Shown here in pieces: positions 1 to 51,033 of a stretch of 64,000 bases of DNA. Source of the stretch: an uncultured Gemmatimonadales bacterium (GTDB taxonomy: Bacteria > Gemmatimonadota > Gemmatimonadetes > Gemmatimonadales > GWC2-71-9); NCBI GenBank assembly GCA_963828735.1, contig CAWHFW010000003.1, positions 128,001 through 192,000 on the forward strand, read 5' to 3'. The first letter of the stretch is position 1; each line of letters begins with the position of its first letter. The notes beneath the pieces are model-generated. The model saw only the letters and a list, made by a program, of their open reading frames with translations, searched no databases and had not been told where the DNA came from. The translations under genes were made by a program, and so were the position numbers.

Positions 1-1936
1 AATCGCGACGCAGGTGCGCGGGACCGTCTCGGCGGCGCGCGACACCATCCGCGCGGAGCTGCAGCGACTCACGTTGGACGAGGGCGGTCGGGCGTGGGCA
101 CTCCAGCACCCGGCGGCCCTCACGTTCGGGCCGCGCGTCGAGGTGAACGGGCTCGCGCTCCGCGCCGGCGATCGCAGCATCGAGATAAACGGGGTGGTCG
201 ACCGCCAGGGGACGAGCGACCTGACCCTGCGCATCGCCTCGCTCGAGCTGGAGACGCTGCGCGCGGCGGGGCTGGTGCCGGTCGGTGGCCGGGTGGACGG
301 CCAGTTCCACCTCACGGGGCCCGCACGGAATCCTCGGCTCCAGGGGGGCGTGACCCTGGCCATCAGGTCGAGCCGCAGACGTGACGTGGGGACGGTCGGC
401 ACCAAAGTCGACTGGCGCGGCAGCGCCCTCCAACTGTCGGCCGCAGCAAAGCCATTGAAGGGCGGCGCACTCACCGTCGACGGCTCCCTGCCCTATCGCT
501 TGACGCTGGCCCCGGGCGACACGACGCCCGCCGCCGCGGACACGGTCTCGCTCGCCGTACGCGCCGACAGCTTCGATCTCGCCCTGTTCGAGCCGCTGCT
601 CCCACCCGATGCCGCGAAGGGCCTCGGCGGCCGACTCCGGACGGACGCGCGCATCGGGGGAACGGTGCACGCCCCTCGGGCGACGGGAACCGTCAACCTC
701 GCGCGCGCCACGCTCGAGCTGCCGCCCATCCGCATAGCGTACGAGCGAGGCGAGCTGGCGGGCACCCTCGACGGTGACGTGCTCCGCATCCAGAAGCTCC
801 GGCTGCTGACCGGCAAGCACGAGGAGCTCCTCGCCTCGGGGGCGATTCGCCTGACGCCGCTGAGCGATCCCGGCCTGGGGCTGGAGGGAACCCTTCGCGA
901 CTTCCGGCTGGTCAACTCCGAGCAGCTTCGCACCTCCGCCTCGGGCCAGGTCAAGGTCGCCGGGACGCTACTGCATCCCGAGCTGAGCGGGCGCGTCAAG
1001 CTCGGCCGTACCGATTTCTTCGTCGGAGCGGGCGGCACGCAGGTGCGGGTGGAGCAGGTAGAGCTCACCCCGGCCGAGCTGCGTGACCTGGCGCGCGACT
1101 TCGGTCCAGGCGTGCTCACGCAGGGCGAGCAAACGCCCGGCCTGATGGACCGCGTCAAGCTGGATCTCGCGGTGCAGATGCCCAGACAGGTGTGGATCCG
1201 ACGAACCAGCACTCCGAAAACCAACATCGAGCTGATGGGGAACCTCCGGGTGAGGCAGGAGCCCGGCCAGGAGATGCAGTTCTTCGGACACGTGGAGCCC
1301 GTGCCGAACCGCGGCACGCTCGAGCTCAACGGCAAGCAGTTCCGCCTGACCGACGGGGACATCAACCTCGCCGGTCCGGTGGACTCGACCAAGCTCGACG
1401 TGAACGCCTCGTACGAGGTCCCGACACAGGGCGGTGGCAACGACGAGGGCATCCTCATCAGCGTGCACGCGCGCGGCCGGCTGGACAGTCTCGGGCTCGG
1501 CTTCACGTCCGATCCCTCGATGAGCCAGGACGACATTCTCTCGTACATCGTGACGGGCCGGCCGGCTTCCGATAATCCGCTGTTCGAGCGCACCGGGGGA
1601 GGCGGCGGCAACACCGGCGAGCAGGTAGCGCTCGGCACGCTGACCGGCGCGATCTCCAACACGGCCGGACAACACCTGGGCCTCGACGTGTTCCAGATCC
1701 GACAGGAGCCGGCCCGCGGACTGACGCTCACGGCCGGCCGGTACATGGGATCGCGCCTGTTCCTGGATTTCCAGCTTCCTCTTCAGCTCAGCAGCCTGGC
1801 CCAGCAGTCGTCGTCGGGCACCAATCTGGGACCGGGCTTCGAACTGGAGTACACCCTGGAGCGCTGGCTGCGGGCGAGCCTCCGTGGCGGCAGCCTGTCG
1901 CCGGGCTTCCTCTTCCTGGGCCGCCGTGCGTACTGA
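1..1936 (+). CDS. tamB: TamB/DUF490 translocation and assembly module protein (5'-truncated by window)
   Basis: Repetitive beta-taco-like sequence; C-terminal DUF490-like motifs (F-TSDP-MSQDDILSYIVTGR, LGLDVFQI, LTAGRY); lies directly upstream of an Omp85-family gene. Confidence 0.85.
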   Translation, partial: IATQVRGTVSAARDTIRAELQRLTLDEGGRAWALQHPAALTFGPRVEVNGLALRAGDRSIEINGVVDRQGTSDLTLRIASLELETLRAAGLVPVGGRVDGQFHLTGPARNPRLQGGVTLAIRSSRRRDVGTVGTKVDWRGSALQLSAAAKPLKGGALTVDGSLPYRLTLAPGDTTPAAADTVSLAVRADSFDLALFEPLLPPDAAKGLGGRLRTDARIGGTVHAPRATGTVNLARATLELPPIRIAYERGELAGTLDGDVLRIQKLRLLTGKHEELLASGAIRLTPLSDPGLGLEGTLRDFRLVNSEQLRTSASGQVKVAGTLLHPELSGRVKLGRTDFFVGAGGTQVRVEQVELTPAELRDLARDFGPGVLTQGEQTPGLMDRVKLDLAVQMPRQVWIRRTSTPKTNIELMGNLRVRQEPGQEMQFFGHVEPVPNRGTLELNGKQFRLTDGDINLAGPVDSTKLDVNASYEVPTQGGGNDEGILISVHARGRLDSLGLGFTSDPSMSQDDILSYIVTGRPASDNPLFERTGGGGGNTGEQVALGTLTGAISNTAGQHLGLDVFQIRQEPARGLTLTAGRYMGSRLFLDFQLPLQLSSLAQQSSSGTNLGPGFELEYTLERWLRASLRGGSLSPGFLFLGRRAY

Positions 1937-4070
1937 GCACTGGGCCGCGGTCGTTATGGCCCTGGTCGGAGGCGCGGGTCCGCTCGCCGCGCAGGATCCC
2001 CTCAGTCTGGTCGGTCCGAAGACGCAGGTGAGGTCGGTCGAGTTCGCGTTCACGGAGAAGTCGTCGCTCGACGAGGACCAGCTCCGCCAGAAAATCGCGC
2101 TCAGCGGCCAGGGCGGCATGGTCGGACTGCGGCGGGCGCTCGGCTGGGTGCCGCTCGTGCCGCCCGTCGGCTCGCACCCGTTCGATCCGACGGAGATGGC
2201 CCGGGACGTGGTCCGGCTCCGACGCTACTACGAGCGCTCCGGCTTTCCCAAAGCCGACGTGGACTATCGCGCCACGTATGAGGCGAAGGCCGACGTGGTG
2301 AACGTGACCTATCGCATCGCCGAGGGCCCGCCGCTCACCGTGGATACGCTGACCTTCACGGGCGCGAATGGCGCGCTCACCGTCCCCGACTCCCTCGGCC
2401 CGAGCTGGCAGCACTTCGTTCGGACCGCGCGGCAGTGGACCGCTCGGGCCGGTGAAGATGAGCGTCGCGCGCTCGCCGACAGCACGGTCCGCTGGTTCCG
2501 TGCGAACGGGTACCCGTTCGCGTCCGCACAGACGGTGGCGCGCGTCGACAGCGCGGCCAACCACGCCGACCTCGACGTGCAGGTGGACCCCGGCCAGCGC
2601 GCCAGGGTGGAGCGCGTCGAGGTCACGGGCAACCGGACGATCCCCGAGCGTGAGGTCGTGAGGCAGCTGTCCGTCCGCCCGGGCGATTGGTACGACGCGC
2701 AGGCGCTCGAGCGGACGCGCCAGCAGCTGACCCAGATGGACATCGTGCGACTCGCGTCGCTGGACGTGCCGCGCGACTCCGCGAAGGATACGAGCGTCGT
2801 CGTCATGCTTCGCGTGGACGAAAGTCCCGAGCACCTGATCAAAGGGGAGGCTGGCTACGTCTCGGCCGGCGGGCTGACGTCGCAGGTGACCTGGACGGAC
2901 CGGAGCTGGCTCGGCGGCCTGCGCACCTTCACGGTGGCCGCCACCGCGCTGACGGGGATCGGGGCGCTGGAGAATCCGGCACAGCAGCTCTTTCGGCTGA
3001 ACCTTACCGCGTTCCAGCCGTACGTCGGTGACCGGCGCCTCTCCGCCGCGGGGGGACCCTTCATCGAGTATCGCAACGATCTCCGCGACCGGAGCTGGGC
3101 CGTGGGCTTCGAGGGGTCGCTGGTGTGGGCCCCGGCCCCGCTCCGCTCGATCTCCCTCGGCTATTCCATCTCGCGGCGCCGCGTGTTCGACTACGGCCTC
3201 GGCGCCGACCTGCCACCCGAGGAGTATCTCCCGCTGCTCAACCTCGCCGATCCGAGCACGGTCGGCAGCCTGGAGCAGGACCGCGACCAGAGCGTCCTCA
3301 CGCTCGAAGGGACCTACGGGCGACTGGACCGGATCGCCAACCCGCGCAAGGGGTACGTGCTGCGGCCCCGCATCGCGACGACGCTGCCCGGCTTCAACAC
3401 CAGCGAGTATGCCCTGGTCGATTTCGGCGCCACGGCCTATGTCCCGTTCACCAAGGCCCTGGGCCTGACGCTGCGGGCGGGGGCCGGACGCATCTATCCT
3501 CGCGGGAAGAGCGTCGAAGGCGTGGGCAGCGAGTCCCCGTTCGTTTCCATGCTCAGCCTGAGCGACGTGACGTTCACGGCCGGCGGAACGCGTGACGTCC
3601 GTGGCTGGGGCACGTTCCTGCTCGGGCCCAAGATCCCGCAGGCGCAGCTGGAGCAGCAGGGCGACAGCATCGTCACCCTCGCCGACCGGTATACGCCCAT
3701 CGGTGGGCTCGCCCGACTGGTGAGCAGCGTCGAGCTTCACTTCCCAATGCCGCTCCTGGGTGAGGCCTTTCAGCCGTTCCTATTCTGGGACGGCGGACGG
3801 ATCTGGACGCCCGACAGCCGGTTCGCGCTCGATGCCGGCGCGATCGGCGAGGACAAGTTCTATCACTCGATCGGCGCAGGCATCGGCTATCAGACCCTCG
3901 TGGGCGCGATTCAGGTGGCCGTGGGGTACAAGCTGAACCCATCGCCACTCGACCTGCGCTCCCCGCAGGACGTCGCGACCGCGCTCCAGAACGGCGCGCC
4001 CGTCGAGGCGGCCCCGACCTCCTCGTCACGGCGGTTTCACCTGCACTTCTCGATCGGCGCGACTTTCTGA
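1926..4070 (+). CDS. tamA: TamA/BamA (Omp85) family outer membrane protein
   Basis: GTG at 1926 gives a signal peptide ending AQ; POTRA-like motifs (YYERSGF, GN-RT-IP-E); GG-RDVRGW loop motif; C-terminal FHLHFSIGATF beta-signal; overlaps tamB. Confidence 0.85.
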   Translation: MRTEHWAAVVMALVGGAGPLAAQDPLSLVGPKTQVRSVEFAFTEKSSLDEDQLRQKIALSGQGGMVGLRRALGWVPLVPPVGSHPFDPTEMARDVVRLRRYYERSGFPKADVDYRATYEAKADVVNVTYRIAEGPPLTVDTLTFTGANGALTVPDSLGPSWQHFVRTARQWTARAGEDERRALADSTVRWFRANGYPFASAQTVARVDSAANHADLDVQVDPGQRARVERVEVTGNRTIPEREVVRQLSVRPGDWYDAQALERTRQQLTQMDIVRLASLDVPRDSAKDTSVVVMLRVDESPEHLIKGEAGYVSAGGLTSQVTWTDRSWLGGLRTFTVAATALTGIGALENPAQQLFRLNLTAFQPYVGDRRLSAAGGPFIEYRNDLRDRSWAVGFEGSLVWAPAPLRSISLGYSISRRRVFDYGLGADLPPEEYLPLLNLADPSTVGSLEQDRDQSVLTLEGTYGRLDRIANPRKGYVLRPRIATTLPGFNTSEYALVDFGATAYVPFTKALGLTLRAGAGRIYPRGKSVEGVGSESPFVSMLSLSDVTFTAGGTRDVRGWGTFLLGPKIPQAQLEQQGDSIVTLADRYTPIGGLARLVSSVELHFPMPLLGEAFQPFLFWDGGRIWTPDSRFALDAGAIGEDKFYHSIGAGIGYQTLVGAIQVAVGYKLNPSPLDLRSPQDVATALQNGAPVEAAPTSSSRRFHLHFSIGATF

Positions 4071-4136
4071 CCACGTTGCTGCCCGGATCACCGTGACCAC
4101 CGCCACCGCACCGCCGTTTCCCCCATCCCAACGTTC

Positions 4137-4805
4137 GTGATGCCGGCTCGCATCTTCCTGCTTTCTCCGGCGCACCTGGGCGGAAAGCGAGCGGACCTGC
4201 TCCTGAGCGGGCGCGGCCGGTTTCCGCTGGCGGAGCGTCTCCGCGCCGGAGAGACGGTGACGATCGCCGAGGCGTTCACGTTCCTGAGCGGGCTCTACTT
4301 CCGTGGCAAGGTGACGTATGCCCGCCGGTTCGCCCGCCCACCGGCCGACGTGCCCGGCGTCCTGGTGATCACGAGCAATCAGGGGTTGCTCCCGGCTGAC
4401 ACACCGATGACGACGCACGAGCTCCTCGCCTTCGCGGGGACGGACATCCGGGCCGGCGAAGCGGGGTATCAGGAACCGCTGCGGCGCGACATCGCGGCGC
4501 TCGACGCGGGAGCCGCGGGAGCATCGACGGAGGTCGTGCTGCTGGGAAGCATCGCGACCGGCAAGTACGTGGATGTCCTGTTCGACGTTCTTGGGGAGCG
4601 GCTCCTCTTTCCCACGGCGTTCGCGGGCCGCGGGGACATGAGCCGGGGCGCCCTGCTGCTCCGGGCGGCACGCGCCGACCAGGAGCTCGCGTACGCACCT
4701 GTGGCGACCGGCGTGCGCCGTGGGCCGCGGCCGAGGAAAGGAGGACCGGGCGATGGCAACGACGGCCAGAGCGCGGACCGGGGTGCGGATTCCGGCCGGA
4801 GTTAG
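4137..4805 (+). CDS. Conserved hypothetical protein, DUF6884/YaaA-like by motif pattern; first gene of split-LigD operon
   Basis: Coding-like ORF with IFLLSPA, SGLYFRGKVTYARRF, VLVITSNQGLLPADTPM, VVLLG..GKY motifs; overlaps downstream polymerase gene. Confidence 0.75.
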   Translation: MMPARIFLLSPAHLGGKRADLLLSGRGRFPLAERLRAGETVTIAEAFTFLSGLYFRGKVTYARRFARPPADVPGVLVITSNQGLLPADTPMTTHELLAFAGTDIRAGEAGYQEPLRRDIAALDAGAAGASTEVVLLGSIATGKYVDVLFDVLGERLLFPTAFAGRGDMSRGALLLRAARADQELAYAPVATGVRRGPRPRKGGPGDGNDGQSADRGADSGRS

Positions 4806-5700
4806 GAGCGCCGAGCTCCGGGCCGGTCGCCATGCGGTTCCGCTCAGCAACCTCGACAAGGTCTTCTGGCCCGAGGCCGGGTATACCAAGCGGCATCTGC
4901 TGCAGTACTACGCGGACGTCTCGAGCGCGCTCGTGCCTCACCTTCGTGACCGCGCGATGGTCATGAAGCGCTACCCGAACGGCATCCACGGCAAGTGCTT
5001 CTTCATGAAGCGCACGCCCTCGCCGCACCCCGAATGGCTCGAGACCTGCTCGATCGAGCACAAGTCGGCCAGCGTGATCGCCTTTCCGATGATCCAGGAC
5101 GTGGCGTCGCTGCTCTGGGTGGTGAACCTGGGCTGCATCGACCTCAACCCCTGGTACGCCCGCTGCGACGACACCGACCGGCCCGACCATCTGCACTTCG
5201 ACCTGGACCCCGGCCCCGGCGTTCCGTTCGCGCGGGTCCGTGAAACGGCGCTCGTCGTGCGCGACGCGCTGGAGTCGCTGGGCATGAGCGCGCTGGTGAA
5301 GACCAGCGGCTCGACCGGCATGCACCTCTACGTGCCGATCGTCCGCGGACCCGCTCAGAAGACCGTGTGGCAGTTCGCGAAGAGCCTGGCGAAGCGGCTC
5401 GAGCGCCGACACCCGAACCTGATCACCGCCGAATACCGCATCGCCGACCGGCCGCGGGGGCGCGTGCTCGTGGACTACAACCAGAACGCGTGGGGACGGA
5501 CGTTGGCCTCGGTCTACTCCGTTCGGCCCACCGAGCGCGCCACCGTCTCGACCCCAGTCACCTGGGCCGAAGTGGAGCGCGGCTTCGACGTAGAGGCGTT
5601 CCGGTTGGACAACGTGCCCGGTCGCCTGCGCCGCCTGGGCGACCTGTGGAGGCCCCTCCTGGTCGCTCGCGGTCGATTCCGACTGGATGATGTCCTGTGA
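4753..5700 (+). CDS. Stand-alone LigD-type primase-polymerase (AEP; Prim-PolC/PolD-like)
   Basis: LSNLDKVFWP, RYPNGI, FDLDP (DxD), KTSGSTGMH, VDYNQN, YSVRP, VSTP.TW motifs; AGGAGG upstream of ATG 4753. Confidence 0.93.
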   Translation: MATTARARTGVRIPAGVRSAELRAGRHAVPLSNLDKVFWPEAGYTKRHLLQYYADVSSALVPHLRDRAMVMKRYPNGIHGKCFFMKRTPSPHPEWLETCSIEHKSASVIAFPMIQDVASLLWVVNLGCIDLNPWYARCDDTDRPDHLHFDLDPGPGVPFARVRETALVVRDALESLGMSALVKTSGSTGMHLYVPIVRGPAQKTVWQFAKSLAKRLERRHPNLITAEYRIADRPRGRVLVDYNQNAWGRTLASVYSVRPTERATVSTPVTWAEVERGFDVEAFRLDNVPGRLRRLGDLWRPLLVARGRFRLDDVL

Positions 5701-6695
5701 GCCTGCCGCTGCGATTCCCCTATGCCCCGATGGAAGCGGAGAGCGTCCCCACGCTTCCCACCGGACGCGAGTGGCAGTACGAGCCCAAGTGGGACGGCTT
5801 CCGCTGCCTTGCGTTTCGCGATGGTGACACGGTGCGCATCCAGAGCAAGGCTGGCAAGCCGCTCGCGCGGTACTTCCCCGACATCGTGGAATCGTTGTCG
5901 TCGCTCGCGGCCAGACGCTTCGTGCTCGACGGCGAGATCGTGATCCCGGTGGACGGCCGGCTCTCGTTCGACGAGCTGCTCCTCCGCGTGCATCCCGCCG
6001 CCAGCCGGGTCCGGACGCTGGTGGAGGCGCATCCCGCGCGGCTCATGGTGTTCGATCTGCTGGTGGACGAGCAGGGCCGCTCGCTCGTCGCGAAGCCGCT
6101 GTCGGAGCGGCGCGTGCGACTGGAGGCATTCGCGAAGCGATACTTCCGACGCGGGGGCGCGATCGTGCTGTCGCGGGCCTCGCGCCGTCAGGGCACGGCA
6201 CGCGGGTGGCTCACCGGCGGCAAGGGAGACCTCGACGGCGTGGTGGCCAAACGGCTGGACCTTCCGTATCGATCCGGCGACCGCCACGGGATGGTGAAGG
6301 TGAAGCGGCGGCGCACGGCCGACTGCGTCGTCGGCGGATTCCGGTACGCTTCCAAGGGCGGGGGCATCGGCTCCTTGCTGCTCGGGCTGTACGACGACGC
6401 GGGACGGCTCGACCACGTTGGGTTCTGCTCCAGTTTTTCGGCGGTCGAGCGTCGCGGCCTCAAGGCGAAGCTCGAGCCCCTTCGAAAGCCACCCGGCTTC
6501 ACGGGCCGAGCGCCGGGCGGCCCGAGCCGGTGGAGCACCGAGCGGTCGGCGGCATGGGAGCCGTTGGCGCCCAAGCTCGTCGTCGAGGTCGAGTACGATC
6601 ATGTGACCAACAGCCGATTCCGGCACGGCACCGGCTTCGTCCGGTGGCGACCGGACAAGACCCCCGGCCAATGTACCCTGGAGCAGCTGACATGA
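5697..6695 (+). CDS. ligC: ATP-dependent DNA ligase, LigC type
   Basis: Motifs EPKWDGFR, DGEIV, FDLL, DGVVAK, KVK; LigC-like PGGPSRWS and RFRHG..F.RWRPDK; GTGA overlap with Pol gene. Confidence 0.92.
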   Translation: MSLPLRFPYAPMEAESVPTLPTGREWQYEPKWDGFRCLAFRDGDTVRIQSKAGKPLARYFPDIVESLSSLAARRFVLDGEIVIPVDGRLSFDELLLRVHPAASRVRTLVEAHPARLMVFDLLVDEQGRSLVAKPLSERRVRLEAFAKRYFRRGGAIVLSRASRRQGTARGWLTGGKGDLDGVVAKRLDLPYRSGDRHGMVKVKRRRTADCVVGGFRYASKGGGIGSLLLGLYDDAGRLDHVGFCSSFSAVERRGLKAKLEPLRKPPGFTGRAPGGPSRWSTERSAAWEPLAPKLVVEVEYDHVTNSRFRHGTGFVRWRPDKTPGQCTLEQLT

Positions 6696-7369
6696 GTGAG
6701 AAGAAGAGCACCACGGGCCGGAAGCGGAAACCGCAGACGAGGCTCGCCGAATACCGTCGCAAGCGCGATTTCAACCGCACCGCCGAGCCACGAGGCGGAC
6801 CGCGCAAGGCGGCCGCCAAGCTGGCGTACGTCATCCAGAAGCACGCCGCGAGCCACCTGCACTTCGACCTGCGGCTCGAGCTCGACGGCGTAATGAAGAG
6901 CTGGGCTGTGCCGAAGGGGCCGAGCCTCGACCCGGCGGTGAAGCGACTTGCGATGCAGGTCGAGGATCACCCGATCGAGTACAACGCGTTCGAGGGGACC
7001 ATTCCCAAGGGAGAGTACGGCGGCGGCACGGTGATGATCTGGGACCAGGGAACCTACTCGTACGGTGGCGACGACGACGCCGAGCCCGTCGAGAGGCTGC
7101 GGGAGGGCTATGCCCGCGGCGACTTCAAGTTCGTGCTCGACGGGAAGCGCCTCCGGGGCTCGTGGGTGCTCGTGCGCACCCGTCGCGGAGACCCCAGCCG
7201 CGCCCAGTGGCTCCTGATCAAGCACCGGGACGAGTTCGCCGAGCCGGGATCGGAGGTCGTCGAGGAGTATCTCAGCTCGGCGACCACCGGCCGCACGATG
7301 GAGGAGATCGCAGCCGGACGAAAGCCGCGGCGGAAGACGACCGATGGTCGCGCCCGATCGCGGCGGTGA
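6692..7369 (+). CDS. Stand-alone LigD 3'-phosphoesterase (PE / LigD_N) domain protein
   Basis: YRRKRDF..T.EP, VIQKHAASHLHFDLRLE, SWAVPKGPS, EDHPIEY..FEG, YGGGTVMIWD.G; ATGA overlap with ligase. Confidence 0.93.
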   Translation: MSEKKSTTGRKRKPQTRLAEYRRKRDFNRTAEPRGGPRKAAAKLAYVIQKHAASHLHFDLRLELDGVMKSWAVPKGPSLDPAVKRLAMQVEDHPIEYNAFEGTIPKGEYGGGTVMIWDQGTYSYGGDDDAEPVERLREGYARGDFKFVLDGKRLRGSWVLVRTRRGDPSRAQWLLIKHRDEFAEPGSEVVEEYLSSATTGRTMEEIAAGRKPRRKTTDGRARSRR

Positions 7370-13979: not shown

Positions 13980-14708
13980 ATGGCGCAGGTCTGGATCGGG
14001 ACGTCGGGGTACGTCTACCGGCACTGGCGAGCCGGGGTGTTCTATCCGCCGGGCATGTCCGCCCGCGACGAGCTCACCTGGTACGCCGACCGCTTTCGCA
14101 CGGTCGAGCTCAACAATCCTTTCTATCGACCACCGTCACGCGCGACCTATGCGCGCTGGGCGGAGGCGACGCCGAGGGATTTCGTCTTCGCGGTGAAGGT
14201 GAGCCGCGTCATCAGTCACTACCGCCGGCTCCGCGAGGTCGGCGAGCCGCTCGCCCGTTTTCTCGACGACGCCGAGGCCCTGGGCCCGAAGCTCGGCCCG
14301 CTGCTGGTGCAGCTCCCGCCGCAGTTCCAACTCGACCTGGCGGCGCTGCGAGCATTCCTGGCAGTGCTGTCCGAGTCGTTTCGGTGGGTGCTCGAAGTCC
14401 GGCATCCGAGCTGGCAGGTCCCGGCGGTCTACGAGACACTGGCCACCCGTGGGGTGGCCCTCTGCGTTCCGGTCGGCGGGCGTGTCCAGCCGGACCTGGT
14501 AACGACCGCCGCGTTTACCTACGTGCGGATGCACTCAGGAGCCGAAGCCGGGAGGTTCGGTGACGAGGAACTGGCGGTGTGGGCCAGGAGGGTGCGCGCG
14601 CTGGTGCGCTCAGGCAAGGAGGTGTTCGTTTACTTCAACAACGATCGGGAAGGGCATGCGCCGCGCGATGCGGCGAGGCTTCGGGACCGGTTGGGTCTGA
14701 TCCGCTGA
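13980..14708 (+). CDS. DUF72 (YecE-like) TIM-barrel protein, copy 1
   Basis: IGTSGY.Y.HW, FYP, TVELNNPFYR, FAVK..R.ISH, LGPLLVQLPP, YVRMH, VFVYFNND; GGGAGG RBS. Confidence 0.93.
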   Translation: MAQVWIGTSGYVYRHWRAGVFYPPGMSARDELTWYADRFRTVELNNPFYRPPSRATYARWAEATPRDFVFAVKVSRVISHYRRLREVGEPLARFLDDAEALGPKLGPLLVQLPPQFQLDLAALRAFLAVLSESFRWVLEVRHPSWQVPAVYETLATRGVALCVPVGGRVQPDLVTTAAFTYVRMHSGAEAGRFGDEELAVWARRVRALVRSGKEVFVYFNNDREGHAPRDAARLRDRLGLIR

Positions 14709-19110: not shown

Positions 19111-20670
19111 CTGACGCTCGCCGAGCTGGTCGAGGCCTCCCGCGCGGTCGCCGCCACGCGCGCGCGACGCGAGAAGATCGCCCGCCTCGCCGCCGTGCTC
19201 GCGTCCGCGCCACCCAACGAGGTGGCTCTCGCCACGTCGTACCTCTGCGGCATCGTTCCCCAGGACAAGCTCGGCGTCGGATGGGCCGGACTTCAGGCCG
19301 CGGCCGCCGCCACGCCGGTACCGGCCGAGCGGTCGGACGCGCCGGAGCCCGTCGTCCTCGGCGAGCTGGACGCCGCCTTCGGGCGAATCGCCGGGACGAC
19401 GGGCAAAGGATCCGCCGAGGCCAAGCAGCGGATCCTCCGCGAGCTGCTCGCGCAGCTCGGCGAAGAAGAACGGCGTTTCCTGTTCGGGCTCGTCACCGGC
19501 GAGCTTCGCCAGGGCGCGCTCGAAGGAATCGTGATTGAAGCCGTCGCCCGGGCCGCCGACCTGCCCGCCGACGATGTTCGCCGTGCAGCGATGCTGGCCG
19601 GCGACCTTCCGCGGGTTGCCCACGCGGCACTCACCGAAGGCGCGAGCGGATTGGCGGGATTTGCAGTGCAGCTCTTCCGGCCGGTGCTTCCGATGCTCGC
19701 CGGCACGGCCGAGACGGTGGAGGACGCGCTCGCCGAGGTGGGCGAGGCCGCGCTCGAGTGGAAGCTGGATGGCGCACGGGTCCAGATCCACAAGTCGGGT
19801 GACGAGGTTCGGGTGTATTCCCGCCTGCTCAACGAGGTGACACCCGCCGTACCCGAGCTGGTCGAGGTCGCGCGGGCGCTGGGGCCGAGAGAGTTGATCG
19901 TCGAAGGCGAAGCAATCGCGCTCCGCCCCGACGGGACGCCCCATCCCTTTCAGACGACGATGAGCCGCTTCGGCCGCCGGCTCGACGTGGTGGAGGCGCG
20001 GCGCACCACGCCGCTGACGCTGGCGCTGTTCGACATCCTCTATCTCGATGGCGCCTCGCTCATGGACGAGCCGCTCATCCGCAGGACGGACGCCCTCGCG
20101 GGTGCGGTACCCGAGGCGCTGCGCGTGCCGCGTCTCGTCACCAACGCACCCGAGCCGGCGCGGGCATTCCTCGAGCACGCGCTGGCGCGCGGCCATGAGG
20201 GGATCATGGTGAAGGCGCTGGACGCGCCCTACGAGGCCGGGCGTCGGGGCCGGCGGTGGCTCAAGGTGAAACCGGTGCGGACGCTGGATCTCGTCGTGCT
20301 GGCCGCCGAATGGGGCCACGGCCGCCGCCGCGGCTGGCTCAGCAATCTCCACCTCGGCGCGCGCGATCCCGAGCGGGGGGGCTTCGTGATGCTCGGCAAG
20401 ACCTTCAAGGGCATGACGGACGAGATGCTGGCGTGGCAGACCATGAAGCTCCAGGAGCTCGAGGTTTCCCGCGACGGCCACACCGTGCATGTGCGCCCCG
20501 AGCTGGTGGTGGAAGTGGCGTTCAACGACCTGCAGGCGAGTCCGCACTATCCGGGCGGCCTCGCCCTGCGGTTCGCGCGGGTCAAGGGCTACCGTCCGGA
20601 CAAGTCGGCCGCGGACGCCGACACGATCCAGACGCTCAGGGAGATCTGGCGGCGACAGTCCGGCTCCTGA
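19111..20670 (+). CDS. ligB: ATP-dependent DNA ligase, LigB type (apparent CTG start)
   Basis: N-terminal DNA-binding domain (SRAVAAT.ARREKI, GELRQGALEG), EWKLDGAR, EGIMVK, WLKVK, ALRFARV..YRPDK. Confidence 0.92.
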   Translation: MTLAELVEASRAVAATRARREKIARLAAVLASAPPNEVALATSYLCGIVPQDKLGVGWAGLQAAAAATPVPAERSDAPEPVVLGELDAAFGRIAGTTGKGSAEAKQRILRELLAQLGEEERRFLFGLVTGELRQGALEGIVIEAVARAADLPADDVRRAAMLAGDLPRVAHAALTEGASGLAGFAVQLFRPVLPMLAGTAETVEDALAEVGEAALEWKLDGARVQIHKSGDEVRVYSRLLNEVTPAVPELVEVARALGPRELIVEGEAIALRPDGTPHPFQTTMSRFGRRLDVVEARRTTPLTLALFDILYLDGASLMDEPLIRRTDALAGAVPEALRVPRLVTNAPEPARAFLEHALARGHEGIMVKALDAPYEAGRRGRRWLKVKPVRTLDLVVLAAEWGHGRRRGWLSNLHLGARDPERGGFVMLGKTFKGMTDEMLAWQTMKLQELEVSRDGHTVHVRPELVVEVAFNDLQASPHYPGGLALRFARVKGYRPDKSAADADTIQTLREIWRRQSGS

Positions 20671-37837: not shown

Positions 37838-40450
37838 TCAGGCCAACTCCTCCTGCAATCGTCCGAGTGCATAGCCCAGATCCGGCACCAGCTCCACCAC
37901 CTCCGCCAACGGGTCCGTCTTCAGCTTCTTCATCCGTTCCGGAACCGTGACCATCGTGTGCCGGCGGATATCCAGCTTCCGGTTGACCTCGCGCCATGCG
38001 AGCGGCGTGGACACCGGTGCGCCCAGCAGCGGCCGCACGCAGAACGGCGAGACGAGCAGCTTGCCGGACCCGTTCTGCAGATAATCGATGTAGACCCGGC
38101 CATCCCGCCGCGAAACCTGCCGGGTGATCGTGGCGATCTCGGGCAGCCGCCCGACCAGGCAGCGCGCCAGCAGCTCGCCCAGCGAGCGTGACTGTTCGTG
38201 CGTGCATTGGCGTCCGAGCGGAACCAGCAGGTGCAGGCCGGACGAACCGCTCGTCTTCACGTACAACGGGAGCTCGATGCGATCGCACAGGGCGCGCGCC
38301 TCGAGCGCCACGTCGACCACCTGGGTGAACGGCGCTCCCTTGGGATCGAGATCGAGCACGCACCAATCCGGGCGCTCGAGCGTGGGCGCTCGGCTGGCCC
38401 AGAGGTGAAGCGGGATCGAGCCCAGGTTGATGACGTACAGCAGTGAGGCCAGGTCGTCGCAGACGAAGTAGTCGATCTCGCGCTGCGTGTCCTCGCTCCA
38501 CATGCGCTCGGTGCGGATCCAATCCGGCGCGAAGCCCGGCGCGTCCTTCTGGAAGAAGGACTTGCCGCCGATCCCGTCCGGAAACCGCGTCATCACCAGT
38601 GGCCGATGTCTGAGATACGGCAGGAGCCACGGCGCGATCGCGCGGTAGTAGGCGACGAGGTCTCCCTTGGTGAACCCGTCGTCGGGCCAGAAGACCTTCT
38701 TGAGGTTCGTGAGCTCGAACGGGAGCTCGTCGCCATCGCGTGCCGGGCCTTTCTTCGCATGCTTACCCGGCACCTGGACCTTGCCGTCCGCCCCGGCCAC
38801 CGCGTCCATCCGGCGGCCATCGCCTGTGCTCCTCGCGTCGTCCGGCCCGGCGCCATTGCGATCGTCCGACCGCCCGACCTTCCGAGCGCGCCTGATACAC
38901 TCTTCCGGCCCCTTGTCGTCGCGGAACCTCAAGAACACCGGCTGCCGCAGCAACCCTTCCTCCGTCCATTCGGTGTACTCGACCTCGCATACGAGACGGG
39001 GCTCCACCCACGTCGTCCCCTTTTCCTTCGGCACCGGCCCGACGCACGGCGGATCGGCGCGGCGATCGTGCTCGAGCGAGCGGGTGACCTCGCCGAGCTG
39101 CTTCTCGGTGAAGCCGGTGCCGACCCGCCCGGAATAGGTCAGGGTGCCATCCACGTATTCGGCCAGGTGGAGCGCGCCGAACCCGCCCCGGGAGCCCTTC
39201 GGGGCCGTCGAGCCGACCACCACGAAATCACCGGTGAGGCGGGAGCGGATCTTGAGCCACACGGACGACCGCCCCGCCTTGTAGGGCGCGGTCGCCTTCT
39301 TCGCCACGACGCCCTCGAGTCCCAGCCGCTCAGCTTCACGGTAGAGCGCCTCGCCGTCATCCTCGACATGTTCCAGATAGCGGAGGGCGCCGAGGGACGG
39401 CAGGACGCGCTGGAGCAGGCGTTTGCGCTCGGTGAGCGGCAGCGGACGGAGATCGAAGTCCTCGAACCCGAGCAGATCGAACGCGTAGTAGATGACGGGG
39501 TTCCGGACAGCGGCGTGCCGGATGTCGATCGGCCGCCGCAGACGGGCACGGCCTTGCAGGCGTTGAAAGCTGGGAATGCCGTGGTCGTCCAGCGCAACGA
39601 CCTCGCCATCGAGCACCAGGCGATCGAACGGGAGCGCCGCGACCGCGCGCGCCACCTCGGGAAACGCCTCGGCACACTCGTTCCCATTCCGGGTGAAGAG
39701 TCGTGGCTCGCCGCTCCGCCGTGCGGCGAGGACACGGTAACCGTCGAGCTTGGGCTCGAACAGCCAACCCGCCCGGGAGAACGCCCGGTCCGCGGTCTCC
39801 GCGAGCATCGGACTCGCCGATTTCGCCTCGACCGGACGGCGCGGTGCGCCGAGCTTCGAGAGCTCGGCGCGGATGGCCTCGCCGCAGTCGCGTCCCGCCT
39901 CCAGATCCTCGACCGTGAGCCCCGACAGCACCGACTCGGCCGGAGTCACCCGGTCGGTCGAAGCCCAGCCGTCGCGCTCCTTGATGAGGAGCCACTCCTT
40001 CTGACCCTTCTTGATCTTCACCAGGGTCCAAAGGCCGTGCAGCTTGTAGCCCTTGAGCTCGAACAGCAGCTTCCCCTTTTCGAGCCCCTCCAGCGGATCG
40101 CCGATCGGCACCCATTCGCCACGGTCCCAGACGATCACGGCACCGGCACCGTAGTTGCCTTCGGGAATGAGTCCCTCGAAATCGCCGTACTCGATCGGGT
40201 GATCCTCGACGTGCACCGCCAGCCGCTTATCGGCCGTGTCATAGGACGGCCCCTTCGGCACGGCCCACGAGCGAAGCACGCCTTCCATCTCCAGGCGGAG
40301 ATCCCAATGCAGCCGGGTGGCGGCGTGCATGTGCACCACGAAGAGCTGGCCGGATGCCGGGGCCACGGCGCCCGCGGGCTCGGGCGTGCGCTCGAGCGAA
40401 CGCTTGGCGCGGTAGGCGGCGAGATGGTCGGGCGAGGACGGTCGGGGCAT
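37838..40450 (-). CDS. ligD: DNA ligase D (PE-ligase-polymerase)
   Basis: N-terminal PE (HAATRLHWDLRLE, EDHPIEY), ligase (EPKLDGYR, EGVVAK, WLKI), polymerase (LDLDP, KTSGSSGLH, IDYLQN). Confidence 0.96.
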   Translation of the reverse strand: MPRPSSPDHLAAYRAKRSLERTPEPAGAVAPASGQLFVVHMHAATRLHWDLRLEMEGVLRSWAVPKGPSYDTADKRLAVHVEDHPIEYGDFEGLIPEGNYGAGAVIVWDRGEWVPIGDPLEGLEKGKLLFELKGYKLHGLWTLVKIKKGQKEWLLIKERDGWASTDRVTPAESVLSGLTVEDLEAGRDCGEAIRAELSKLGAPRRPVEAKSASPMLAETADRAFSRAGWLFEPKLDGYRVLAARRSGEPRLFTRNGNECAEAFPEVARAVAALPFDRLVLDGEVVALDDHGIPSFQRLQGRARLRRPIDIRHAAVRNPVIYYAFDLLGFEDFDLRPLPLTERKRLLQRVLPSLGALRYLEHVEDDGEALYREAERLGLEGVVAKKATAPYKAGRSSVWLKIRSRLTGDFVVVGSTAPKGSRGGFGALHLAEYVDGTLTYSGRVGTGFTEKQLGEVTRSLEHDRRADPPCVGPVPKEKGTTWVEPRLVCEVEYTEWTEEGLLRQPVFLRFRDDKGPEECIRRARKVGRSDDRNGAGPDDARSTGDGRRMDAVAGADGKVQVPGKHAKKGPARDGDELPFELTNLKKVFWPDDGFTKGDLVAYYRAIAPWLLPYLRHRPLVMTRFPDGIGGKSFFQKDAPGFAPDWIRTERMWSEDTQREIDYFVCDDLASLLYVINLGSIPLHLWASRAPTLERPDWCVLDLDPKGAPFTQVVDVALEARALCDRIELPLYVKTSGSSGLHLLVPLGRQCTHEQSRSLGELLARCLVGRLPEIATITRQVSRRDGRVYIDYLQNGSGKLLVSPFCVRPLLGAPVSTPLAWREVNRKLDIRRHTMVTVPERMKKLKTDPLAEVVELVPDLGYALGRLQEELA

Positions 40451-40749: not shown

Positions 40750-41616
40750 ATGACTGCCAGATCCATCGGGTCCGCGACGATCTCCTTCGGCCTGGTCTCC
40801 GTCCCGGTCAACCTGTTTTCCTCGAGTGAGTCCGCCGCGAGCATCAGCTTCAACATGCTGCACACCACCTGCGGCTCGCGGCTCAAGCAGCAGTACATCT
40901 GCTCGAAGGAAGGCACGGTGGTCGAGAAGGACGAGGTCGGGAAGGGCTACGAGTTCTCCAAGGGCCAGTACGTCCGCTTCTCGGCCGACGAGATCAAGGC
41001 CCTGGACGAGAAGGCGACCAACGCGATCGACATCGCCGAGTTCGTGCCGCTCTCGGCCATAGACCGGATCTACCTCGAAAAGGTCTACTTTCTCGGCCCC
41101 GACAAGGGCGGCGACCGGGCGTACGGGTTGCTGGCCAAGGCGCTCGAAGTGACCGGTCGCGCGGCCCTGGGTCAGTACTCCGCCCGCGGCAAGCAGTATC
41201 TCGTGCTGGTGCGGCCGATGGGCGACCTCCTCGTAATGGAGCAGCTCCACTATCACGCCGAGCTCAGGAGCGCGGACGAGGTGCCGCGGCCGGAAACGCC
41301 GGTGAAAGACGGCGAGCTCGCGCTGGCGCGGCTTCTCATCGAGCAGTCCGCGGTCGACGAGTTCCGTCCCGAGAACTATCGCGACACCGTGCGCGAGCGG
41401 ATACTCGAAGCCATCCAGCAGAAGGTGGACGGCCAGGAGATCACGGCTGAGCCCGAGGCGCCGCAGACCAAGATCATCGACCTGATGGACGCGCTGAAGG
41501 CCAGCCTCGCCAAGCGCGGCGCGACCGCCGAGAAGCAGTCCGATCGAGCGGTCGCGACCAAGGCCGCCAAGGAGATGGAAGCCAAGCCGCGGCGGAAAGC
41601 GAGCGGAGCGCGATAG
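40750..41616 (+). CDS. ku: Non-homologous end joining protein Ku
   Basis: RSIGSATISFGLVSVPV, KGYE, I.I.EFVP, AY.LL..AL, Y.D, IIDLMDALKASL and basic tail. Confidence 0.96.
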   Translation: MTARSIGSATISFGLVSVPVNLFSSSESAASISFNMLHTTCGSRLKQQYICSKEGTVVEKDEVGKGYEFSKGQYVRFSADEIKALDEKATNAIDIAEFVPLSAIDRIYLEKVYFLGPDKGGDRAYGLLAKALEVTGRAALGQYSARGKQYLVLVRPMGDLLVMEQLHYHAELRSADEVPRPETPVKDGELALARLLIEQSAVDEFRPENYRDTVRERILEAIQQKVDGQEITAEPEAPQTKIIDLMDALKASLAKRGATAEKQSDRAVATKAAKEMEAKPRRKASGAR

Positions 41617-41649: not shown

Positions 41650-42354
41650 ATGCGCATCCTCACCGGCACCAGCGGCTGGTCCTACAAGGAGTGGAAGGGG
41701 ATCTTCTACCCGGCCGACCTTCCCGCCGACGGCATGCTGCGATATTACGCCACGCGCCTGCCGAGCGTGGAGATCAACAATTCCTTCTACCGCATCCCCA
41801 AGGAGACGGTGCTGCTCGAGTGGGCGGCCCAGGTCCCCGCCGGCTTCCGGTTCGTGCTCAAGGCCTCACGCAGGATCACCCACATCAACCGGCTCGCCAA
41901 CGAGGACGGATCACTGGAATACTTTCTCCGCACCGTCAACGTGCTGGGCGAGCGCCTCGGACCGACGTTGTTCCAGTGCCCGCCCTCGCTCCGGAAGGAC
42001 ATGGACCGGCTGCGTGCCTTCCTCGCGTCGGTGCCGCGGACGTGGCGCGCGGCGATGGAGTTCCGCCACGCATCGTGGTTCACCGATGAGGTCTACGACG
42101 CGCTCCGGGAGCACGATATCGCGCTCGTCGGCGTGGAGGAGCACGAGAGTGAAGGCCCCGGCGCGCCGCTCGTGCCGACGGCCACCTGGGGCTATCTGCG
42201 GCTCCGCCGCACGGACTACACCGACGACATGCTGAAGGGGTGGGTGGAGCGCATCCGCGGCCAGCCGTGGCAGGAGGCGTACGTGTTCCTCAAGCACGAC
42301 GAGGACAAGCCGACGGGGCCGGACGCGGCGGTGAAGCTGGCGGCGATGGTATAG
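41650..42354 (+). CDS. DUF72 (YecE-like) protein, copy 2
   Basis: GTSGWSY.EW.G.FYP, VEINNSFYR, LGP.LFQ.PP, EFRH.SW, YLRLRR; directly after ku. Confidence 0.93.
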   Translation: MRILTGTSGWSYKEWKGIFYPADLPADGMLRYYATRLPSVEINNSFYRIPKETVLLEWAAQVPAGFRFVLKASRRITHINRLANEDGSLEYFLRTVNVLGERLGPTLFQCPPSLRKDMDRLRAFLASVPRTWRAAMEFRHASWFTDEVYDALREHDIALVGVEEHESEGPGAPLVPTATWGYLRLRRTDYTDDMLKGWVERIRGQPWQEAYVFLKHDEDKPTGPDAAVKLAAMV

Positions 42355-49249: not shown

Positions 49250-50473
49250 CTAGCTTTGCACCCCTACCGGCCGGGAGGAGCGTCGGCGCGACCGGTGTGC
49301 CGCCGTCTCGCCGTCGGCCCGCCTGCGTTGTCCGGCAGTCCGTGCCGGATGCAGCACCACCTTCGTCCACCCTTCGTCGCGGGCATCGAAGTGCTTGTAC
49401 GCCTCTGGCGCGTCGTCCAGCGCCAGCTCATGCGAGACGATGAACGATGGCGTGGCGCTCCCGGTCCGGATCAGCTCGCGGAGCCGCCGATTGTACCGCT
49501 TGACGTCGCACTGCCCCGTTCCGATCGTGAGCCCCTTCTCGAAGAAGGTGGCCACGTCGAAGGCCACCTCTCCTTCCTTCATCAGCTTGTCGGGGCTCTT
49601 CGGATCCTGCGTGAAGACGCCCACGACGCCGAGCCCGCCCGTGGCGCGCACCGACTTGACCAGATTGTTCAGCGTCACGTTGGGATGCTCGTGTCCCTGC
49701 GGGTCGTGCGCCTGCCACCCCACGCACTCGCACCCCCGGTCGACGCCGCGGCCGCCAGTAAGCTCCATCAACTGCTCCACCGGGTCACCCTTGGAGTCAT
49801 CGATGGGGACCACGCCGACGCTCTCGGCCAACCGAAGCCGGTCGGGGTGGCGGTCCACGATGAAGATGTTGCCCGCCCCGCGGATCACCGAGGAGTAGGC
49901 GGCCATCAGCCCGACCGGCCCACAGCCGTAGATCACCACCGAATCGCCCGGCTGGACGCCGGCCAGCTCGGTGGCGTGATAGCCGGTCGGCCAGATGTCG
50001 GCCAGCATGACGTAGTCGGTCTGCTTCTCCTCGCCATCCTCGGGAAGTCGCAGGCAGTTCACGTCACCGTACGGCACCTTCAGGTATTCGGCCTGACCGC
50101 CCGGGTACGGGCCCATTTTGGAATAGCCATAGGCCGCGCCGGCGTTCGGCGGGTTCATCGAGAGGCAGAACCCGGTGTAGCCTCGCTCGCAGTTGCGGCA
50201 GAAGCCGCAGCTGATGTTGAAGGGAAGGCAGACCCAGTCGCCCTTCTTGATGCGCCGGACGGCGCTCCCAACCTCGACCACCTGGCCGAGGTTCTCGTGG
50301 CCGATCACCTGCCCCGGCTCGAGATCGGTGCGACCCTCGTACATGTGGAGGTCTGATCCGCAGATATTGGTGCTGGTGATGCGCACCAGAACGTCGGTGG
50401 GCCATTCGATCTTGGCGTCGGGGACGTCTTCCACGCGAACGTCGCGGGGTCCCCTGTAGACCAGTGCTTTCAT
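49250..50473 (-). CDS. Glutathione-independent formaldehyde dehydrogenase (Zn-dependent MDR)
   Basis: ICGSDLHMY, GHE, CGFCRNC...C, GGQAEY, D..PTG, G.GPVG. Confidence 0.92.
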   Translation of the reverse strand: MKALVYRGPRDVRVEDVPDAKIEWPTDVLVRITSTNICGSDLHMYEGRTDLEPGQVIGHENLGQVVEVGSAVRRIKKGDWVCLPFNISCGFCRNCERGYTGFCLSMNPPNAGAAYGYSKMGPYPGGQAEYLKVPYGDVNCLRLPEDGEEKQTDYVMLADIWPTGYHATELAGVQPGDSVVIYGCGPVGLMAAYSSVIRGAGNIFIVDRHPDRLRLAESVGVVPIDDSKGDPVEQLMELTGGRGVDRGCECVGWQAHDPQGHEHPNVTLNNLVKSVRATGGLGVVGVFTQDPKSPDKLMKEGEVAFDVATFFEKGLTIGTGQCDVKRYNRRLRELIRTGSATPSFIVSHELALDDAPEAYKHFDARDEGWTKVVLHPARTAGQRRRADGETAAHRSRRRSSRPVGVQS

Positions 50474-50517
50474 TGCATCAGTTCCTTGCGGAGTTGCTGG
50501 ATCGATGTGACTGCCCG

Positions 50518-51033
50518 CTATCGTTCGGTCTCTCCCGCAGCCAGCGCGGCCTCGTTGATGCCGCCGTCGGCCAGTTCGGTGAGCGTGTCGTCCGCTGCTT
50601 CCTCCTCCTGCAGGGTCTGTTCGAGAAGTCGAACAATGTCATTGTGTCCCAGGAGTTCCGCGTAGCTCCGCAGGCAGCCGTAGGCCGCCATCTCGTAGTG
50701 CTCGACCCGCTGCGCCGCCGAGATGAGCGCCGCGTCCAGCACGCTCTCGTCGCCGTCGCCCTTCTCTTCTAGGATCTCCTTGCCTTCCTCCAGAAGCCCT
50801 TCCATTCCCTTGCATTTCTTACCCCGGGCCGGCAGGTCCAGCGACTGGAAGATTTGCTCCAGCCGGGCCACGTGCCCCTTGCTTTCTTCCAAGTGATTGG
50901 TGAAGGCCTGGGCCAAGTCGGGCGAACTGGCGGCCTTGGCCATCTTGGGAAGCGCGGTGACGATCTGCTTCTCGGCATTGTAGATGTCTTTTAACTCTTC
51001 GATGAATAGGCTGTTCAGGCTATCGAGCGGCAT
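50518..51033 (-). CDS. yciF: YciF/DUF892 ferritin-like stress protein
   Basis: EELKD.Y.AEKQ, H.EES..H..RL, C.GM.GL..EG, AAQRVEHYE.A.YG, TL.EE..AD. Confidence 0.93.
   Translation of the reverse strand: MPLDSLNSLFIEELKDIYNAEKQIVTALPKMAKAASSPDLAQAFTNHLEESKGHVARLEQIFQSLDLPARGKKCKGMEGLLEEGKEILEEKGDGDESVLDAALISAAQRVEHYEMAAYGCLRSYAELLGHNDIVRLLEQTLQEEEAADDTLTELADGGINEAALAAGETER

Follow-up and report, generated by a model that had tools for sequence, protein, structure and literature searches.

What does a protein of no named family do at the head of a DNA repair operon? The question is raised by four overlapping genes on the same strand (positions 4137..7369) of a 64,000-nucleotide stretch from an uncultured Gemmatimonadales bacterium (GenBank assembly GCA_963828735.1, contig CAWHFW010000003.1, positions 128,001 to 192,000; henceforth the window). 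They encode an unnamed protein (henceforth X), an archaeo-eukaryotic primase (AEP) polymerase (Pol), the ligase LigC and a stand-alone 3'-phosphoesterase (PE). A first reading made from the letters of the DNA (the sequence-only reading) had described a split-LigD repair operon led by a DUF6884/YaaA-like protein instead of Ku. We find that the operon is a real set of known enzyme kinds led by an undescribed and widespread family, X, and that X goes together with LigC, in cells equipped for non-homologous end joining (NHEJ) as well, and does not replace Ku.

The operon and its enzymes

The four genes are laid out as follows:

4137..4805, + strand: X, 222 residues with a core at about residues 4-198, unnamed protein with a predicted YaaA/DUF6884-type fold
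4753..5700, + strand: Pol, stand-alone AEP primase-polymerase of a short subfamily lacking Loop 3 (TIGR02778, PF21686)
5697..6695, + strand: LigC, minimal ATP-dependent DNA ligase with nucleotidyltransferase and OB domains (NF006078, PF01068 and PF04679)
6692..7369, + strand: PE, stand-alone LigD-type 3'-phosphoesterase (TIGR02777, PF13298)

This anatomy is exactly as first described: X and Pol overlap by 53 nt, Pol and LigC are joined by GTGA and LigC and PE by ATGA, and all three LigD activities are present as separate polypeptides. The start codon of X is GTG, with an in-frame ATG at 4140, and a GGAGGA ribosome-binding site for Pol lies at 4740-4745. G+C content at third codon positions is 0.84-0.89 across all four frames. 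A promoter scan found no sigma-70 promoter at the operon, and the single terminator-like match of a terminator scan lies inside X and is at chance level. RNA runs, kept as contigs, contain 7-12% of the words, and the four that were mapped give patchy cover of the operon and of the flanking genes alike.

The enzyme identities proposed earlier all lie above curated cut-offs, with catalytic residues kept. Pol scores 246 bits against TIGR02778 (ligD_pol, cut-off 214.7), and its catalytic residues D150, D152, D241 and S185/H191 (the DxD, SxH and D motifs) can be read from the translation. LigC scores 440 bits against PRK08224/NF006078 (cut-off 296) and carries its KxDG motif at K31. PE scores 216 bits against TIGR02777 (cut-off 144), matches PDB entries 2lj6 and 5dmp at E<1e-50, and has in its translation residues H51, H57, D59, R61, H93 and Y97 together with the N-terminal Arg/Glu extension; the catalytic residues of LigD-type PE are named in PMC4797286 and PMC8656161 (these and the other papers cited here by PMC number are drawn on for part of their text).

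The X family and its predicted fold

X has no match in Pfam or NCBIfam, and yet it has at least 7949 relatives (7949 of 8000 scored candidates), with 1449 matching clusters at 50% identity, in Gemmatimonadota, Acidobacteriota, Verrucomicrobiota, Methylomirabilota, Binatota, Chloroflexota and Planctomycetota. The motifs picked out by the sequence-only reading are present and conserved in the family, which keeps SPA, SGLYFRGK, LLGS-A-KY and GRGDMSRG. Invariant residues are S10-P11, R18, S51, Y54-F55-R56-G57-K58, Y61, S138, K143-Y144 and R170, and the triplet S10-P11-A12 is invariant as a whole. Conservation falls on Ser, Tyr, Lys, Arg and Gly; there is no acidic cluster, the sole partly conserved acidic residue being D167 (87%), and this pattern would fit binding of a phosphate backbone better than a metal nuclease. 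The median net charge across the family is +6, and R18, R56, K58, K143 and R170 are conserved, which may point to a positively charged cleft of the DNA-binding kind known from the YaaA/DUF6884 fold group.

Sequence searches gave X no name. A PDB search with X returned nothing usable (best E 0.85), nor did a PHROGs search with its relatives, where the best recurrent family was found with 5 of 110 at E 0.028, and among ESM Atlas clusters the named ones gave no usable match while unnamed ones did match. We found no account of the family or of its link to LigC in the literature searched, most subscription papers lying outside its scope, and the operon figures of PMC5663958, PMC7442782, PMC11701544, PMC10220248, PMC8843374, PMC4797286, PMC8656161 and PMC10140301 could show X unnamed. 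In two genomes X is split in two pieces by a frameshift or sequencing error (G121:C6:43760-44338 and G425:C13:87297-87924). The tree was a quick tree only, and since its deep nodes are unresolved we claim no order of events.

The AlphaFold2 model of X has a predicted local distance difference test score of 95.3. In a Foldseek search of this model against BFVD the top matches were DUF6884 proteins, at E 4.6e-5 (template modelling (TM) score 0.49) and E 3.8e-4 (TM 0.54), both with probability 1.0, and a further match was a phage protein named YaaA. When X was aligned by VIA-align to 48,161 PDB chains, AF0587 ranked first (2q07; Z 5.5, root-mean-square deviation (rmsd) 4.3, 118 aligned) and YaaA second (5caj; Z 5.1, rmsd 3.9, 135 aligned); a true DUF6884 protein run as a control placed the same two folds on top with higher Z (9.5 and 10.2). 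Profile comparison of X with DUF6884, using a DUF6884 profile of only 14 rows, gave a score of 29.5 (E 5e-4, probability 32%), against a decoy maximum of 20.1 (n=44) and a shuffle maximum of 17.7 (n=40).

Searched directly for DUF6884 (PF21818), X gave no match at E up to 10, and nothing else in this genome matched; of 110 relatives six did, the best at E 0.012, which falls short of the Pfam gathering cut-off. In its likeness to DUF6884, of which B. subtilis YfjM is a member, X shares a predicted fold (TM ~0.5) and an 86-column aligned core, into which fall the helix with YFRGK, the strand with IT-xx-GL and the segment with LLG-KY. It differs in being some 60 residues longer, with extra N-terminal helices and the C-terminal GRGDMSRG motif, and in its surroundings: 19 loci found with a DUF6884 model had no Pol, LigC, PE or Ku match within ~1.5 kb. 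To YaaA (DUF328, PF03883) X is linked by the second-ranked PDB fold, by an N-terminal (L/I)LSPA start that is common to both by eye and by a mostly basic protein, whereas X is smaller and has no significant profile match. The 'cantaloupe' alpha/beta core shared by YaaA and DUF6884 is found in X in predicted models. Thus the resemblance first proposed stood as far as the BFVD matches, the profile score above decoys and the PDB folds shared with the control go, but not as membership of DUF6884 or as a match to the YaaA profile. X is predicted to be a distant family of the YaaA/DUF6884 fold, and on these models it appears to work like DUF6884 without belonging to it.

Linkage of X to repair genes

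The proposal that homologs of X would be linked to ligase and polymerase genes was borne out, PE included, across phyla. Among the best 80 GTDB loci of X, a set biased towards close relatives, at least one of Pol, LigC and PE is found no further than 6 kb away in 55, and Ku in one. After pooling all loci, merging duplicates and dropping X matches shorter than 150 residues (n=143), X lies within 3 kb of Pol, LigC or PE in 88 loci, and within reach of a wider repair set in 101; Ku is that close in one. By chance, Pol, LigC or PE would be within reach at ~0.5% of positions in this genome. In an even draw of Gemmatimonadota, X was linked in 33 of the 58 genomes that have it (hand count; flanks of 1.5 kb and 4 kb).

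Gene orders vary (X-Pol-LigC, Pol-LigC-X, X-LigC, X-PE and X-Pol-PE), the full four-gene order occurs in 3 of the 104 loci having 3 kb downstream, and PE as fourth gene is confined to some Gemmatimonadales; the core that crosses phyla is X with Pol and/or LigC. At seven loci in two genera X stands, in other orientations, beside a different Prim-PolC/LigC paralog pair (39-47% identity), whose polymerase is of the His type and has a long extension at its C terminus and whose LigC is 44-47% identical. From a motif match we take this extension to be Loop 3.

Other repair genes also recur next to X. Loci that lack the trio of Pol, LigC and PE often have other excision-repair neighbours: the ExoIII gene xth within 1.4 kb at six loci (18-30 nt upstream at three), udgX at one, lhr at one and DUF72 at four. 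PolX immediately precedes X at four loci, and a PNKP-like kinase immediately follows it at three. In 4 of 25 longer representatives scanned, from four separate 50%-identity clusters, X is fused to a PNKP-like kinase, in both orders. The fused kinase matches mammalian PNKP at E 2.5e-11 and bacterial Pnkp more weakly (E 5e-5). The search for such longer forms was weak and covered only 589-2000 residues. Long 'fusions' to PolX, Prim-Pol, RecQ, MurJ, a sulfatase and DUF7790 were set aside, since most look like frameshift or stop-loss read-throughs that testify to adjacency at most.

Some further genes near X or in the window were noted. The window has DUF72 genes at 13980-14705 and 41650-42351, the latter right after ku, and DUF72 neighbours X in L070, L085, L090 and L184. 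Often found between X or Pol and PE in Gemmatimonadales is a small basic protein that matches neither Pfam nor NCBIfam and that we take to be DUF6496-like (L048:4934-5338; also L015, L039, L043, L044, L052 and L054). A tamB/tamA-like pair at 14-4070 (+) ends 66 nt ahead of X, a link confined to the closest relatives (L007, L008, L037 and L056).

X and Ku in the same cells

The statement that there is no ku gene is right for the operon itself, but not for the window, which holds Ku with a full LigD, nor for the genome, which holds a second ku:

37841..40450, - strand: full-length LigD in the order PE-Lig-Pol (Pfam LigD_N, DNA_ligase_A_M/C, LigD_Prim-Pol), outside the operon
40750..41613, + strand: Ku, divergent from ligD (PF02735, E 1e-44), outside the operon

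This ku, the nearest, is 33 kb from the operon and has its own ligD, while the second adjoins a Lig-Pol LigD on contig C5. The genome thus encodes canonical NHEJ, and the operon lacks the linkage of ku to Pol, Lig and PE that would mark a Ku-dependent NHEJ operon.

The same co-presence holds across the phylum. Searching 301 Gemmatimonadota genomes gave 60 matches to X, of which two weak partial ones (G147 and G152) were dropped to leave 58; 207 of the 301 have Ku, and 58 have LigC at a threshold of E<=1e-80. Ku is present in 56 of the 58 genomes with X, a positive association, and the idea that X stands instead of Ku finds no support in these genomes or in the two Ku-LigD loci of this one. X goes with LigC, which was found in 46/58 genomes with X versus 12/243 without; among genomes with Ku the figures are 44/56 versus 12/151. 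One unpublished genome (G157) has LigC and Pol and is negative for X. We know of no requirement for Ku in LigC-type gap repair.

The two Ku-LigD loci differ in architecture (PE-Lig-Pol in the window, Pol then Lig on C5), their Ku proteins are 37% identical, and both Ku types recur across the genus. A zinc dehydrogenase gene and a DUF892 gene at 49253-51033 (-) lie near the Ku-LigD locus of the window; we take both to be typical general-stress genes. A LigB-type ATP-dependent DNA ligase with A_N, A_M and A_C domains at 19195-20667 (+) brings the ATP-dependent ligases of the window to three.

A short polymerase subfamily

Strictly speaking, Pol does not count as a Prim-PolC. The closest PDB entry to Pol is Prim-PolC (6sa0/5op0, E 5e-56), but Pol lacks Loop 3, ending 14 residues past the core aligned to 5op0 residue 285, and this C-terminal loop (residues 313-333) defines the gap-filling Prim-PolC subfamily (PMC7442782). 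Moreover, Pol has an Asn where Prim-PolC and the Mycobacterium tuberculosis and Pseudomonas aeruginosa polymerases have a ribose-sensing His tied to ribonucleotide preference; the Asn is found in 54 of 58 X-linked Pol copies, the other four being unscorable. Because it lacks Loop 3 and carries Asn in place of this His, Pol would belong to a distinct subfamily rather than to Prim-PolC proper. By hand count the short subfamily occurs in 26 Gemmatimonadota genomes, 22 of them with X.

A replacement of Loop 3 by X in trans was considered and down-weighted, since X also adjoins polymerases with the long C-terminal extension. The predicted X-Pol complex scored 0.00, which is informative neither way. 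The polymerases of L153, L157, L159, L162, L164, L167 and L168 are Prim-PolC-like and bear a further conserved C-terminal extension past the presumed Loop 3.

A putative regulatory box upstream of X

Ahead of the operon lies one further candidate element:

4093..4106, + strand: putative regulatory box GTGAY-N4-SSCAC, 44 nt ahead of the X start

Among 141 X loci, 15, all of them in Gemmatimonadota, have a pattern of the GTGA-N6-NCAC type in the 100 nt before X, compared with 19 of 1377 control 100-mers. A genome scan placed a similar box ahead of udgX (G000:C3:114866; rank 17 of 63 matches), and a narrower pattern derived from X was found ahead of udgX in 8 of 22 genomes of the same genus (fewer than one expected from the flank rate) and at 0 of 31 ku loci. 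Most of the udgX boxes have a TANCAT-like hexamer after them, with an ATG close by. In Gemmatimonadales the GTGAY-N4-SSCAC box lies ~45-50 nt upstream of X and udgX (L201, L202, L206, L208, L214, L217 and L218), and in many cases a -10-like hexamer directly precedes the start codon. We take the box to be CRP/FNR-like, a putative CRP/FNR-type site that probably serves a leaderless transcript. It could be the sign of a DNA-damage regulon, so far undescribed, whose transcripts are leaderless.

Discussion

What is new here is the X family and its links to repair; the three enzymes belong to known kinds, and a role for X is argued from its predicted fold and gene context. The operon is most readily compared with two described systems. 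In mycobacteria LigC acts with Prim-PolC in excision (short-gap) repair (PMC5663958, PMC7442782), and as in the operon a minimal LigC lies beside a stand-alone AEP, separate from Ku-LigD and with genomic links to base-excision enzymes, Prim-PolC being the closest solved polymerase to Pol. The operon differs in its polymerase, which is without Loop 3 and carries Asn in place of the ribose-sensing His, in its attached PE gene and in being led by X, no counterpart of which is mentioned in the parts of those papers drawn on here. The split archaeo-prokaryotic NHEJ set of Methanocella paludicola (Ku, Pol, Lig and PE; PMC4797286) likewise has Pol, Lig and PE as separate operonic polypeptides, and all PE catalytic residues are present here; in contrast, our operon has no ku, its ligase is of the LigC family, and a complete Ku-LigD pair lies elsewhere in the genome.

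We read the operon as one for LigC-type repair, likely of single-strand gaps in non-growing cells. We favour X as a damage-binding helper in gap repair because it lies beside genes for single-strand repair, and not beside Ku, across several phyla. A DUF6884 protein points the same way: YfjM was enriched on both abasic and ribonucleotide lesions (PMC10220248 Table 1; PMC11701544). On the likeliest reading, whose chances seem to us about even, X binds repair intermediates (abasic, ribonucleotide or gap) and keeps them in place while PE heals the ends, the AEP polymerase fills in and LigC seals, in parallel with Ku-LigD.

Starting from what was observed (the four genes, their enzyme families, the size of the X family, its linkage and its co-presence with Ku) and from a predicted fold, we propose the following steps. 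A glycosylase or apurinic/apyrimidinic (AP) endonuclease (UdgX and ExoIII are neighbours of X elsewhere) or oxidation would leave an abasic site, a nick or a gap of 1-3 nt. X would then bind the damage in a basic cleft lined by its invariant residues, from S10-P11 through the Y54-F55-R56-G57-K58 stretch to R170, perhaps flipping a base as modelled for YfjM; binding would most likely proceed without metal catalysis, because the only acidic residue conserved even in part is D167. The ends would be healed by PE, or by the PNKP-like kinase in other lineages, the gap filled by the AEP polymerase or PolX, and the nick sealed by LigC. Double-strand breaks would be left to the separately encoded Ku-LigD.

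Several observations weigh against this proposal. At the level of the PDB the fold scores are weak: in Foldseek YaaA reached E 0.11 and TM 0.40, with no match at E<=0.001, a Z of ~5 for X is within the range that VIA-align calls common and is tied with unrelated rows, and the hhalign score of X against the YaaA profile (18.3) is noise, lying below the shuffle maximum of 24.2. The signature motifs of DUF6884, CxxxK and LSAxxG (PMC11701544), are not kept in X, which has SPA and IT(P/S)xxG at matching places. Linkage is incomplete, with 55 of the 143 loci lacking Pol, LigC or PE within 3 kb and 42 lacking even the wider repair set (some flanks being short), and with only 5 of 12 X genomes linked in an even draw of Acidobacteriota (150 drawn; the linked five include the unpublished G329). 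Many other X loci have unrelated neighbours, and stress genes (DUF72, trehalose synthesis) are also found near X. Finally, 12 of the 58 genomes with X have no LigC match and 12 genomes with LigC have no X, and the genomes are related rather than independent, so that Fisher P-values overstate the association.

X might act on the lesion itself, as an AP or 5'-deoxyribose phosphate lyase working through a conserved Lys, or as a metal-free cleaner of 3' ends, between incision and the work of PE, Pol and LigC. The near-invariant K58, K143, S10, S51, S138, Y54, Y61 and Y144 exceed the needs of mere binding, the fusions to a PNKP-like kinase place X at the position of PNKP's second end-healing domain, and the Pfam authors, in the part of their account drawn on here, propose an active site for DUF6884. 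Set against this, the same partial sources report no catalytic activity for YaaA or DUF6884, X has no acidic metal-binding cluster, and removal of 3'-phosphates is already covered by the operon's own PE, and we regard a catalytic X as unlikely.

The incomplete linkage and the nearby stress genes bring up a broader role, in which X would protect DNA or serve in stress generally, as E. coli YaaA does under peroxide; it would share regulation and gene clusters with stationary-phase repair genes yet stand outside their pathway. The protection that YaaA gives against H2O2 and its binding of duplex DNA regardless of sequence (PMC8843374), the 42 loci with none of the tested repair neighbours and the stress-type genes near some X loci would all suit such a protein. 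Against it stands the company X keeps: the genes around it code specifically for excision and gap repair, by enzymes of several unrelated kinds, X tracks LigC even among genomes with Ku, and Ku, though present in 56 of 58 genomes, is near X in 1 of 143 loci, with X within 1.5 kb of ku at none of 31 ku loci. This role, too, strikes us as improbable.

That X replaces Ku as the end-binding factor of split-LigD double-strand-break joining is very improbable. In favour of it, the operon supplies the three LigD activities without a ku, and but for the missing Ku it resembles the split Methanocella set (PMC4797286); moreover, its polymerase lacks the gap-specialised Loop 3. But this genome has two Ku-LigD loci, Ku is positively associated with X across the phylum, the Foldseek rows for Ku80 (TM 0.30, rmsd 10.7) are at chance level and were rejected, and the alternative partners of X (ExoIII, UdgX and PolX) are excision-repair enzymes. 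An action on RNA, as in RNA repair or on a modification-related substrate, hardly comes into question: the best PDB Z went to AF0587, which we take to be related to archaeosine/TGT-type proteins, and the fused kinase weakly resembles bacterial Pnkp, but that kinase is closer to DNA PNKP, the neighbours of X are DNA ligase, AEP, PE, PolX, ExoIII and UdgX, and no RNA ligase or Hen1 cluster is among the recurrent ones.

Returning to X as a lesion-binding helper of gap repair, a further-reaching version may be put forward tentatively, and we give it somewhat less than even weight. X would be a third branch of the YaaA/DUF6884 fold, founding an undescribed class of lesion-recognising or end-processing proteins, and would serve a LigC pathway independent of Ku, in soil phyla that are abundant, as the damage sensor still missing from it, possibly a lyase that flips bases. 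Here X would be paired with a new polymerase subfamily lacking Loop 3, and a promoter box of its own would place X under common control with UdgX.

This family of thousands, met in the company of LigC, AEP, PE, PolX, ExoIII, UdgX and a PNKP-like kinase, gives a handle on what the YaaA/DUF6884 fold does at the molecular level and on how substrates are located in LigC-type repair, a matter understood in part, and it bears on how slow-growing soil bacteria of the Gemmatimonadota, Acidobacteriota and Verrucomicrobiota survive oxidative and desiccation damage.

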